Source: a virus
Lineage: Duplodnaviria > Heunggongvirae > Uroviricota > Caudoviricetes
Reading direction: 5' to 3' (one strand)
DNA length: 11,511 nt
IMG/VR virus record: IMGVR_UViG_2579778919_000009
Coordinates: 1-11,511 of that record
In this document: in pieces, positions 7,180 to 9,498 of the stretch
Layout of the letters: every line of letters starts with the position of its first letter
Numbering within the stretch: position 1 is the first letter of the stretch
Notes under the pieces: generated by a model
Seen by the model: the letters and a program-made list of their open reading frames with translations, nothing else
Told to the model about the DNA's origin: nothing
Database searches by the model: none
Position numbers and translations under genes: made by a program

Positions 7180-7225
7180 TCGCTTTGTCAGCGACGTAGG
7201 ACGAATGTCCATTGTGAAAAGAGCG
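7180..7225 (-). promoter_or_regulatory. nutR: boxA (CGCTCTTTT) followed by a boxB hairpin of the P22 type (loop GACAAA)
   Basis: On the - strand, just downstream of the cro stop: CGCTCTTTTCACAATGGACATTCGTCCTACGTCGCTGACAAAGCGAGC. The boxB stem-loop matches the P22-type GCGCUGACAAAGCGC rather than lambda GCCCUGAAAAAGGGC. A 7-bp stem hairpin at about 7133-7150 may be part of tR1. Confidence 0.55.
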
Positions 7226-7232
7226 GTGTTAC

Positions 7233-7433
7233 TTATGCAGTTGTTTTTTTGTTACTTGGGAAGGGCTTTATTTCTTCCGCATAAACGCTTCCATCAGCGT
7301 TTATAGTTAAAAAAATCTTTCGGCCTGCATGAATGGCCTTGTTAATCGCGCTTTGATATACGCCGAGATCTTTAGCCGTCTTGGTTTGCCCAAAGCGTAT
7401 TGCATAATCTTTCAGGGTTATGCGTTGTTCCAT
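7233..7433 (-). CDS. cro: Cro repressor
   Basis: 66-aa product [66 protein letters not shown] is essentially lambda Cro (one or two substitutions, from memory). Confidence 0.95.
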
Positions 7434-7533
7434 ACAACCTCCTTAGTACAGGCAACCATTATCACCGCTAGAGGTAAAATAGTCAACACGCACGGTGTTA
7501 GAAGTTTATCCCTTGCGGTGATAGATTTAATGC
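7434..7533. promoter_or_regulatory. Right operator: OR1 (about 7461-7477), OR2 (about 7485-7501), OR3 (about 7508-7524) with divergent PR (toward cro) and PRM (toward cI)
   Basis: Three 17-bp sites TATCACCGCTAGAGGTA, CAACACGCACGGTGTTA, TATCCCTTGCGGTGATA match lambda OR1/OR2/OR3 (OR1 appears to carry one substitution). They lie in the 100-bp gap between the divergent cro and cI genes. Confidence 0.9.
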
Positions 7534-8247
7534 ATGAGCGCAAAAAAGAAACCGTTAACACAAGAGCAGCTTGAGGACGCACGTCGCCTTAAAGCTATTT
7601 ATGAAAAAAAGAAAAATGAGCTTGGCTTATCCCAGGAATCTGTCGCAGACAAGATGGGGATGGGGCAGTCAGGTGTTGGTGCTTTATTTAATGGCATCAA
7701 TGCATTAAATGCTTATAACGCCGCATTGCTTGCAAAAATTCTCAACGTTAGCGTTGAAGAATTTAGCCCTTCAATCGCCAGAGAAATCTACGAGATGTAT
7801 GAAGCGGTTAGTATGCAGCCGTCACTTAGAAGTGAGTATGAGTACCCTGTTTTTTCTCATGTTCAAGCCGGGATGTTCTCGCCTGAGCTTAGAACCTTTA
7901 CCAAAGGCGATGCGGAGAAATGGGTAAGCACAACCAAAAAAGCCAGTGATTCTGCATTCTGGCTTGAGGTTGAAGGTAATTCCATGACCGCACCAACAGG
8001 CTACAAGCCAAGCTTTCCTGACGGAATGTTAATTCTGGTTGACCCTGAGCAGGCTGTTGAGCCAGGTGATTTCTGCATAGCCAGACTTGGAGGTGATGAG
8101 TTTACCTTCAAGAAACTAATCAGGGATAGCGGTCAGGTGTTTCTACAACCACTAAACCCGCAATATCCAATGATCCCATGCAATGAGAGTTGTTCCGTTG
8201 TGGGGAAAGTTATCGCCAGCCAGTGGCCAGAAGAGACGTTTGGGTGA
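7534..8247 (+). CDS. cI: CI repressor (lambda immunity), apparently intact
   Basis: 237-aa product is near-identical to lambda CI from memory (a handful of substitutions). It retains the N-terminal HTH ([21 protein letters not shown]) and the full C-terminal dimerisation/autocleavage domain. Confidence 0.97.
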
Positions 8248-8278
8248 TTGTTTTATTTTTCACGTAATAGGATGATTT

Positions 8279-8620
8279 ATGACACAATTTCAACTTGCAT
8301 TAATCGCTAGAGAAGTTGATGGAGAAGTCATCCATCTTCGCACCAAAGACGGATACATCAATGCCACCGCGATGTGCAAGTCTGCGGGGAAGCTACTTGC
8401 TGACTATACACGACTAAAAACAACACAAGATTTTTTTGATGAATTATCACGCGATATGGGGATTCCCATATCGGAGTTAATTCAATCATTTAAAGGCGGA
8501 AGAGCAGAGAATCAAGGGACTTGGGTTCATCCAGACATCGCAATTAATTTAGCTCAGTGGCTATCTCCAAAATTTGCAGTGCAAGTATCGAGATGGGTGC
8601 GTGAGTGGATGTCAGGTTAA
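8279..8620 (+). CDS. KilA-N domain protein (113 aa) in the rexA/rexB position, co-transcribed with cI
   Basis: YINATAMCKSAGK...ENQGTWVHPDIAINLAQWLSPKFAVQVSRWV fits the KilA-N domain pattern as I recall it. SD AGGATGA upstream of the ATG; only about 31 nt separate it from the cI stop, with no terminator between. Confidence 0.65.
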   Translation: MTQFQLALIAREVDGEVIHLRTKDGYINATAMCKSAGKLLADYTRLKTTQDFFDELSRDMGIPISELIQSFKGGRAENQGTWVHPDIAINLAQWLSPKFAVQVSRWVREWMSG

Positions 8621-8659
8621 AGAGCGCCTGCCGAACTCCCTATCCACCTTAAGCGGTAT

Positions 8660-8965
8660 ATGACAAACCGAGGCAGAGTTCCTCATACGCACTTTTCTAT
8701 GCTTAATGAACTGACGTTTAACTTGGTTGCGCCACTTGAACAGGCCGGATATACGCTGCCAGAAAAAATGGTCCCTGATATTTCAGAGGGTAGGGTTTTC
8801 TCGCAATGGCTCCGTGACAACCGGGGGGTTGAGCCGAAGACATTCCCAACATATAACCATGAGTACCCAGATGGCCGGACATTCCCGGTACGTCTATACC
8901 CAAACGAATATTGCAGATTTCAAACAATACTTCAACGAAGTGTGGCTGCCTCAGTACGCTCCTAA
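8660..8965 (+). CDS. Hypothetical protein, in the same frame as the KilA-N ORF and separated from it by a single TAA; probable frameshift near 8890-8910, after which the alternative frame continues to 9038
   Basis: 8279 and 8660 are in the same frame, with 13 sense codons and one TAA (8618-8620) between them. Weak RBS before 8660. The overlapping ORF 8727..9038 has a protein-like C-terminus (NIADFKQYFNEVWLPQYAPKYFAERDQRALTLIEKIML). Confidence 0.45.
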   Translation: MTNRGRVPHTHFSMLNELTFNLVAPLEQAGYTLPEKMVPDISEGRVFSQWLRDNRGVEPKTFPTYNHEYPDGRTFPVRLYPNEYCRFQTILQRSVAASVRS

Positions 8966-9047
8966 ATATTTTGCTGAACGAGACCAAAGGGCATTGACGT
9001 TGATTGAGAAAATCATGCTACCTGACCTTGATTCCTAAATGTTATTC

Positions 9048-9073
9048 CCGGCCACAGAGCCGGGTTTTCTTTG
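9048..9073 (+). terminator. Intrinsic terminator closing the cI / KilA-N operon
   Basis: CCCGGC-CACAGA-GCCGGG hairpin (6-bp GC stem) followed by TTTTCTTT, about 10 nt after the 9038 stop. Confidence 0.7.
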
Positions 9074-9112
9074 CCTCACGATCCCCCTCACCCAAGAACA
9101 CATAACCAATTG

Positions 9113-9138
9113 TATCTATTTGAAAATAAATAGATACA
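9113..9138. repeat. Perfect 10-bp inverted repeat GTATCTATTT-N6-AAATAGATAC between the terminator and OL3
   Basis: Read directly; AT-rich, so more likely a protein-binding site than a terminator. Confidence 0.6.
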
Positions 9139-9225
9139 ACTCACTAAACATAGCAGTTCAGATCTCTCACCTACCAAACAATGCACCCCTGCAAAAAATA
9201 AATTCATATAAAAAACATACAGATA

Positions 9226-9295
9226 ACCATCTGCGGTGATGAATTATCTCTAGCGGTGTTGACATAAATACCACTGGCGGTGATACTAAACACAT
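9226..9295 (+). promoter_or_regulatory. Left operator OL3-OL2-OL1 with PL promoter (-35 TTGACA, -10 GATACT), transcribing rightward in this window
   Basis: TATCTCTAGCGGTGTTGACATAAATACCACTGGCGGTGATACTAAACACATCAGCAGGACGCAC is near-identical to lambda PL/OL1/OL2 from memory. An OL3-like site AACCATCTGCGGTGA lies about 20 bp upstream. Confidence 0.9.
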
Positions 9296-9355
9296 CAGCA
9301 GGACGCACTACTCACCAGGGCGGTGAATATACAACGATTCAAATATGAATCTACG

Positions 9356-9370
9356 GCGCTGACAAAGCGC
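9356..9370 (+). promoter_or_regulatory. nutL boxB hairpin, P22 type (GCGCTGACAAAGCGC)
   Basis: 5-bp GC stem with GACAAA loop, about 65 nt downstream of the PL start and about 130 nt upstream of the N-like start codon. No convincing boxA identified. Confidence 0.55.
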
Positions 9371-9498
9371 AATAACCAAAGTGAACTTTGGGGTGAATGC
9401 AGAAGCTAACCTTCTCGGCGGAGGCGCTTTGCAATGATTACGCTACCGGAGTTAGTCGCCCGGCTGTATTCACCGCCAAAGTTCACCAGGAGGTCTAT

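Follow-up and report, generated by a model that had tools for sequence, protein, structure and literature searches.

The N antitermination module of lambdoid phages occurs in several types, and the type most relevant to this study is known from H-19B, 933W, HK97 and their relatives. The phages H-19B (AF034975) and 933W (AF125520) carry it with a repressor, Cro and operators of their own, which are related to those of HK022 and not to those of lambda. Annotation of nutL and nutR in 933W goes back to the deposition of its genome record. The phage HK97 (AF069529 / NC_002167) has CI, Cro and operators of lambda specificity together with an H-19B-type nutL boxB and N. The phages mEp234 and HK106 (EF120460, EF120461) likewise have lambda operators and lambda cI/cro, and oL1-3 and oR1-3 are annotated in both records. 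The combination of lambda immunity with an H-19B-type N gene and nut sites is therefore already known, as it has been deposited for HK97, mEp234, HK106 and PhiR5_2 (PV340546). Here we describe the same combination in a prophage remnant, of which we analysed a stretch of 11,511 nucleotides (nt), positions 1 to 11,511 of the IMG/VR virus record IMGVR_UViG_2579778919_000009 (the window). The subject is the immunity region at 7180-9380 and the truncated N gene that follows it. A first reading made from the letters alone (the sequence-only reading) had taken this region for a hybrid of lambda-type repressors and operators with a P22-type N/nut module.

Immunity Region of the Prophage Remnant

The interval is very probably the immunity region of a lambdoid prophage, in which lambda specificity is flanked on both sides by nut sites of the H-19B/933W/HK97 type and the N gene is truncated. 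The early region of the window reads in the direction opposite to the standard lambda map. The features are listed in Table 1. Unless another phage is named, the identities of the repressor proteins and operators given below refer to the comparison of the window with the lambda reference.

The CI repressor was identical to lambda CI at 233 of 237 residues, with the substitutions T3A, K71N, R129K and S157Y (Met = 1), and to HK97 CI at 235 of 237. The Cro protein was identical at 64 of 66 residues, with the substitutions M12I and V55I. The six 17-bp operators together had 3 mismatches in 102 bases, and they kept the order and spacing of lambda. The 100 nt between cI and cro were identical at 95 positions. 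The start of the PL transcript was placed at approximately 9294 by homology, and the start is given in the annotation of mEp234. CI, Cro and all six operators, which were the features tested for membership of the lambda immunity group (imm lambda), were thus of the lambda type. The sequence-only reading had stated that the right and left operators (OR and OL) match lambda nearly base for base and that CI and Cro are nearly identical to those of lambda, and the counts above bear this out. The elements that it had assigned to 7180-9380 were also found where it placed them, apart from the N fragment, which lies just outside that interval.

A shared change was seen in two of the operators. OR1 (TACCTCTAGCGGTGATA) and OL2 (TATCTCTAGCGGTGTTG) have the same G-to-A substitution at operator position 8 relative to lambda.

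The repressor half of the region, comprising cI and the operators, appears intact. Lambda-type immunity is probably the function that survives in the remnant, and CI would be expected to be expressed and functional in the carrier.

Structure of the nut Sites

Both boxB sequences are at the canonical sites, following cro in one case and the PL start in the other, and each has a boxA ahead of it. They share an 11-mer core, GCTGACAAAGC. The window has two copies of this core and no more, both in the sense orientation of their transcript, PL or PR. Each boxB folds into a 5-bp stem with a GACAA pentaloop, with predicted energies of -8.5 kcal/mol for nutL and -6.4 kcal/mol for nutR. The sole difference between the nutR and nutL boxB is a compensatory change of the closing pair, G-C to U-A. 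The spacer between boxA and boxB is 43 nt long in nutL and 22 nt long in nutR, and small hairpins are predicted in both. The segment 9304-9375 folded with an energy of -19.8 kcal/mol (z = -4.2) into three hairpins. The Rfam scan of the whole window returned no family at its gathering score, and no nut or boxB family.

The module of the H-19B type is recognised by the boxB pattern (G/U)CGCUGACAAAGCG(C/A) and by long spacers with dyad symmetry, and both were found at nutL and at nutR. Neely and Friedman reportedly singled out spacer dyad symmetry in 2000 as a feature of the H-19B nut sites. Two hairpins have been reported in H-19B nutR (PMC3526286). In the alignment, the hairpin of the nutR spacer was kept in H-19B, 933W, HK97 and mEp234 and was absent from P22 and lambda.

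The boxB sequences of nutL and nutR and the long hairpin spacers of H-19B and 933W are the same as those of the window. The nutR block is identical to that of HK97 and differs by a few bases from those of H-19B and 933W. One of these bases is in boxA, which reads CGCTATTTT in nutR of H-19B and 933W and CGCTCTTTT in the window. The phages mEp234 and HK106 have exactly the boxA and boxB of the window at both sites, and EF120460 explicitly annotates these sequences beside the lambda operators.

A long hairpin follows nutL in the leader of the N transcript. The leader (9372-9498) folded with an energy of -50.5 kcal/mol (z = -4.7). Its outer stem was conserved in lambda, P22, 933W and H-19B in the alignment. 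Its interior occurs in two unrelated versions, of which the window has that of H-19B, while HK97, mEp234 and PhiR5_2 have that of 933W. By its position, the hairpin may correspond to the RNase III site of the lambda N leader.

Truncated N Gene and the recT Deletion

The segment 9290-9629, which holds nutL, the N leader and N codons 1-44, was 97.65% identical to H-19B (AF034975) over 341 nt. Residues 1-44 of the truncated protein (N') were identical at all 44 positions to the N proteins of 933W, HK97, mEp234 and H-19B. The arginine-rich motif (ARM) of N, RSRRRER, occupies residues 12-18 and is complete in N'. In H-19B N, the same residues were defined by mutagenesis as the ARM that binds nut (PMC3526286). 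A search of the PDB sequences with N residues 1-44 gave no match.

The homology of every N-bearing relative stops at 9629. At the deletion junction (9629/9630), codon 44 of N is joined to the interior of recT, and 11 out-of-frame residues follow before a stop codon. The RecT frame is open from 9630 (9630-10364, + strand), and positions 60-186 of the Pfam RecT profile were matched downstream. The N-terminal part of recT, about 60 profile positions, is missing. The H-19B/933W/HK97-type module has a full-length N of 127 amino acids (aa), whereas N of the window ends after codon 44. N is full length in HK97 (127 aa) and also in mEp234, HK106 and PhiR5_2, unlike in the window.

The undeleted state was found in a prophage of E. 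coli 1008S19, which was 99.97% identical over window positions 6728-9629 and has an intact 127-aa N. In this record (locus L008, NZ_CP147050), the intact N of the H-19B/933W type lies at 10398-10781, with its start at 10398. RefSeq gives at this locus only a 69-nt feature named 'antitermination protein, incomplete', which is an annotation gap.

In the intact relatives, CI would repress PL and PR. Each of the two transcripts made after induction would carry NUT RNA, consisting of boxA, a long hairpin spacer and boxB with its 5-bp stem and GACAA loop. The H-19B-type N would bind boxB through the ARM (residues 12-18) and, together with NusA, would make RNA polymerase resistant to downstream terminators. 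In the window copy, the antitermination half would be a relic, with codon 44 of N fused to the interior of recT. By analogy with the N proteins of lambda and H-19B (PMC3526286), N' is without the central region thought to bind NusA and without the C-terminal region that binds RNA polymerase. Processive antitermination should therefore be lost, and N' is probably inactive in it. The nut sites are intact but, with no working N, would be relics.

Boundaries of the Mosaic

BLASTN showed homology to lambda DNA at window positions 7219-8248 and 9047-9326. On the side of the left arm of the phage map, the homology to H-19B begins at approximately 9293, and the two homologies overlap by approximately 34 nt at the start of the PL transcript (...ATCAGCAGGACGCACT). 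This stretch is also conserved in P22. On the side that is the right arm of the phage map, the homology to lambda stops inside the nutR boxA (7219), and the cro stop codon and boxA are shared. No junction was seen at nutR in the comparison with HK97. The HK97 match (6588-8243, 97.2%) runs through this site and through a cII gene of the HK97 type. PhiR5_2 matched the window contiguously over 6872-9629 at 93.8%, a match that takes in the gene located between cI and OL. The positions of these boundaries suggest that recombination took place within short conserved segments, one where the PL transcript starts and the other at the cro stop and boxA.

Table 1. Features of the immunity region, the nut sites and the adjoining genes, with positions in the window
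Feature	Position	Strand	Sequence	Basis or comparison
cII, HK97 type	6799-7095	-		Pfam Phage_CII; 97/98 identical to HK97 CII, 34% to lambda CII
nutR boxB	7180-7194	-	TCGCTGACAAAGCGA (UCGCUGACAAAGCGA)	Identical to boxB of mEp234 (EF120460) and to the H-19B copy at AF034975 position 5663
nutR spacer hairpin	7199-7210	-	GGAC-AUUC-GUCC	Predicted fold, between boxA and boxB
nutR boxA	7217-7225	-	CGCUCUUUU (CGCTCTTTT)	Same sequence as boxA annotated in mEp234
cro	7233-7433	-		Pfam Cro; lambda specificity
OR1, OR2, OR3 with PR and PRM	7460-7523 (OR1 7460-7476, OR2 7484-7500, OR3 7507-7523)			Mismatches to lambda 1, 0, 0
cI repressor	7534-8247	+		Full length; Pfam HTH_3 and Peptidase_S24
OL3, OL2, OL1 with PL	9225-9285 (OL3 9225-9241, OL2 9245-9261, OL1 9269-9285)			Mismatches to lambda 1, 1, 0
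nutL boxA, degenerate	9304-9312	+	CGCACUACU (CGCACTACT)	Same sequence annotated as nutL boxA in mEp234 (EF120460)
nutL spacer hairpins	9313-9325 and 9336-9351, within the spacer listed at 9313-9351	+		Predicted fold; kept in H-19B, 933W and HK97
nutL boxB	9356-9370	+	GCGCTGACAAAGCGC (GCGCUGACAAAGCGC)	Identical to nutL boxB of H-19B, 933W, mEp234 and P22
Long hairpin of the N leader	9378-9486	+		Between nutL and the N ribosome-binding site; centre of the H-19B variant
Truncated N (N')	9499-9666	+		Codons 1-44 of H-19B-type N including the ARM; 55-residue product

Alternative Explanations

The sequence-only reading had called the module P22-type, and a direct mosaic of lambda and P22 would mean that P22's own N (gp24) and nut sites had recombined into lambda immunity. 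The P22 boxB on which that reading relied is correct, since it equals the nutL boxB annotated in the P22 RefSeq record NC_002371, and the nutL boxB of the window is identical to it. The same 15-mer is the RNA in the solved complex of the P22 N peptide and boxB, PDB 1A4T (quoted in PMC11480772). The ARM of the window has the core G-N-x-x-x-R-R-x-E-R in common with that of gp24, and the H-19B-type N and gp24 are in the same Pfam family. The likeness is limited, however. The nutR boxB differs at 2 of 15 positions from the P22 nutL boxB and at 4 of 15 from the P22 nutR boxB (CCGCCGACAACGCGG). The statement that both sites carry a boxB hairpin of this type holds, with full identity to P22 at nutL. 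The ARM is identical to that of gp24 (GNAKTRRHERRRKLAIER) at 8 of 24 residues in the best register and at 8 of 21 in a local alignment, compared with 44 of 44 N' residues for H-19B, 933W and HK97, and so its P22-like character holds for the family and not for the allele. The spacers of 43 and 22 nt also differ from the 11 nt (nutL) and 10 nt (nutR) of P22. BLASTN against P22 gave no match in either nut region or in N, which leaves no P22 homology at the DNA level outside the 15-nt hairpin, and the block from nutL to N' is that of H-19B. P22 itself was rejected as the donor of the module on these grounds, that is, the BLASTN result, the identity to H-19B and the differences in spacers and ARM, and a direct lambda and P22 mosaic is very unlikely. 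The label P22-type was not upheld. The more general claim, that a non-lambda N/nut module lies inside lambda immunity, was supported. The mosaic boundaries separate the immunity determinants from the nut sites, and the nutL boxB is that of P22 and not that of lambda.

The hairpins might also be chance matches or generic terminator-like stems. In shuffled sequence, the 11-mer core had a mean of 0.33 matches, but two copies were reached in 8 of 200 shuffles, and the nutR fold in a 51-nt context had a modest z-score of -1.68. Against this stand the canonical positions, the sense orientation, the boxA before each hairpin and the compensatory closing pair, as well as the sequence identity to the H-19B nutR, which has been studied by experiment, and to the nut sites that the 933W and mEp234 records annotate. 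We therefore consider a chance origin negligible in probability. A laboratory hybrid or cloning artefact, such as an engineered lambda imm or PL-N' construct, was considered because vectors and recombineering strains often carry lambda cI/PL/N' fragments, and a truncated N is followed here by a recombinase gene. However, the DNA is approximately 95-96% identical to lambda and not 100%, the identical N' is present in 287 assembly blocks, the window is 100% identical to a natural chromosomal locus, and a 99.97% identical immunity region is present in a wild E. coli prophage. An artefact is thus extremely improbable. Another possibility is that N' with its ARM has been retained as a boxB-binding peptide, acting as a decoy against superinfecting phages of the H-19B/933W type (Shiga-toxin phages) or the HK97 type, or as a local anti-Rho factor at nutR. 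By analogy, the Nun protein of HK022 competes for lambda boxB. The ARM is complete, N' has its own ribosome-binding site and leader, and the identical 55-aa product occurs in many assemblies. In addition, loss of the RNA-polymerase-binding domain does not stop H-19B N from opposing Rho near nutR (PMC3526286). However, N' is transcribed from PL, a promoter that should be silent in a lysogen with intact CI and OL, and a single deletion passed on clonally would explain the wide occurrence equally well. Decay of the surrounding prophage is seen in insertion sequence (IS) insertions and further deletions in three related loci (L013, L014 and L017). N' has also lost the central region, the putative NusA-binding part, whereas the published construct lacking the C-terminal domain kept it. 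Retention of N' as a functional peptide is therefore very unlikely.

A few points weigh against the reading of the interval as a lambda immunity region with H-19B/933W/HK97-type nut sites and a truncated N, or against parts of it. The statement that the combination had been described before rests on GenBank records and on the papers of Juhala in 2000 and Degnan in 2007, which reportedly gave the first descriptions of HK97 and of wild phages with lambda immunity. N' scored 25.8 bits on the Pfam family PF25694 (N_peptide), just under the gathering cut-off of 27.9, which is expected of a fragment. H-19B N without its C-terminal domain still counteracts Rho at nutR/tR1 (PMC3526286). For this reason, an N fragment that binds boxB need not be wholly inert, with the limit that N' has lost far more than the published construct.

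Other Genes of the Remnant

The slot between cI and OL (8279-9038, + strand), which is the position of rexAB in lambda, holds a KilA-N open reading frame (ORF) at 8279-8620, followed by out-of-frame ORFs with weak matches to BstA and BstA_C. In PhiR5_2 the slot is occupied by one 253-aa gene that matched the BstA abortive-infection model (E = 2.5e-20). Since the PhiR5_2 gene is a single one, the copy in the window looks split, and it looks like a divided bstA-like defence gene. HK97 has gp48 and gp49 between cI and OL, and mEp234 and HK106 have hicAB there, in contrast to the KilA-N/BstA-like gene of the window.

The segment 4274-6603 (+ strand) contains genes for an O-like replication protein, a DnaB-like helicase (truncated inside the C-terminal domain) and a Q antiterminator. 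With respect to cro and cII, this block is turned around. Q of the near-identical E. coli 1008S19 prophage has the expected orientation, on the - strand. The arrangement looks like an inversion combined with loss of the nin region.

A single 525-aa ORF at 2356-3933 (- strand) joins the N-terminus of Rz (Pfam Phage_lysis, residues 29-142) to a P22 gp20-like ejection protein (Inj_translocase, residues 130-262). The head and tail genes appear to have been lost through a deletion that runs from the lysis cassette into the genes for ejection proteins. An ORF for a SieA-like superinfection-exclusion protein (PF26849) is located at 1-495 (+ strand), and a P22 gp16-like ejection protein is encoded at 518-2359 (- strand). 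The late region is thus P22-like, and the early region is lambda/HK97/H-19B-like.

Chromosomal Context and Distribution

A chromosomal locus (L015) matched the window at 100% identity. It has bioA/ybhB-like genes on one side and ybhC-like genes on the other, and by this gene neighbourhood the remnant is a defective prophage at the lambda attachment site. Of a lambda-type integrase, the window retains no more than the C-terminal 154 residues (11047-11511, + strand), which adjoin ybhC-like, aconitase-like and pgl-like host genes. The bioA/ybhB-like genes at the other end of the remnant are the neighbourhood of lambda attB.

Full coverage of a 151-nt probe from OL3 to the nutL boxB was obtained with 10 phage records, and 111 of the 5,426 complete E. 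coli genomes also covered it in full. The exact-protein look-up recorded the identical N' (55 aa) in 287 blocks of public assemblies. No match to the N'::recT junction was obtained in an exact-match scan of species-representative genomes, and none of the complete E. coli genomes had at least 80% of the window in one place. Some copies of N' (L013, L014 and L017) are accompanied by IS insertions and further deletions. Among the loci L012-L017, sister copies show IS insertions and, in addition, a deletion of window positions 6110-7341, by which cII, nutR and part of cro are gone.

Comparison with Known Lambdoid Systems

The region is a textbook case of lambdoid mosaicism, in which the specificity of immunity and that of antitermination vary independently of each other and meet at short conserved linkers. 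Such a case has been on record from the time of the HK97 genome and of the survey of wild phages with lambda immunity. It has little import beyond correct annotation. A fitting label is 'lambda immunity, H-19B/HK97-type nut sites, N truncated, defective prophage at att-lambda', and not 'P22-type'.

In the Pfam comparison, P22 gp24 and the H-19B-type N proteins are both members of PF25694, and lambda N is not. The scores on this family were 152 bits for P22 gp24, 57.5 for 933W N, 57.9 for H-19B N and 16.4 for lambda N. The C-termini of the full-length 933W N and P22 gp24 were identical at 20 of 29 residues. On these comparisons, the H-19B-type N is distantly related to P22 gp24 and shares its nutL boxB, but it is not the P22 allele. 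The boxB is shared with P22 because the two proteins are distant members of one N family. Since their nutL boxB is identical, the H-19B-type N and P22 gp24 might conceivably, although with low probability, cross-activate each other's prophages. That two N proteins with RNA-binding motifs only about one-third identical have one identical boxB hairpin bears on the evolution of ARM-RNA specificity, but it is the known H-19B and P22 systems, and not the window, that have this property. The P22 nut sites have the boxA GCTCTTTA, and their short spacers are without hairpins. The P22 repressor, Cro and operators differ from those of the window, and the P22 C2 repressor is 35% identical to the window CI.

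The lambda boxB, GCCCUGAARAAGGGC, differs from the boxB sequences of the window at 3-6 of 15 positions, as the sequence-only reading had supposed, and the boxA-boxB spacers of lambda are 7 and 8 nt long. Lambda N scored 92 bits on PF11438 (N36 motif), and N' had no match to this family in the Pfam search. The window thus has neither the boxB nor the PF11438-type N of the lambda N/nut module. The boxB stems (TCTCAACCTAACCGTTGAGA, TCACCTCTAACCGGGTGA) and the ARM (GTAKSRYKARRAELIAERR) of phage 21 are unrelated in sequence to those of the window. The layout of lambda and phage 21 is the same as that of the window, with a promoter-proximal boxA, a spacer, boxB and the N gene downstream of PL, and the sequence at the start of the PL transcript, AUCAGCAGGACGC, is common to all three.

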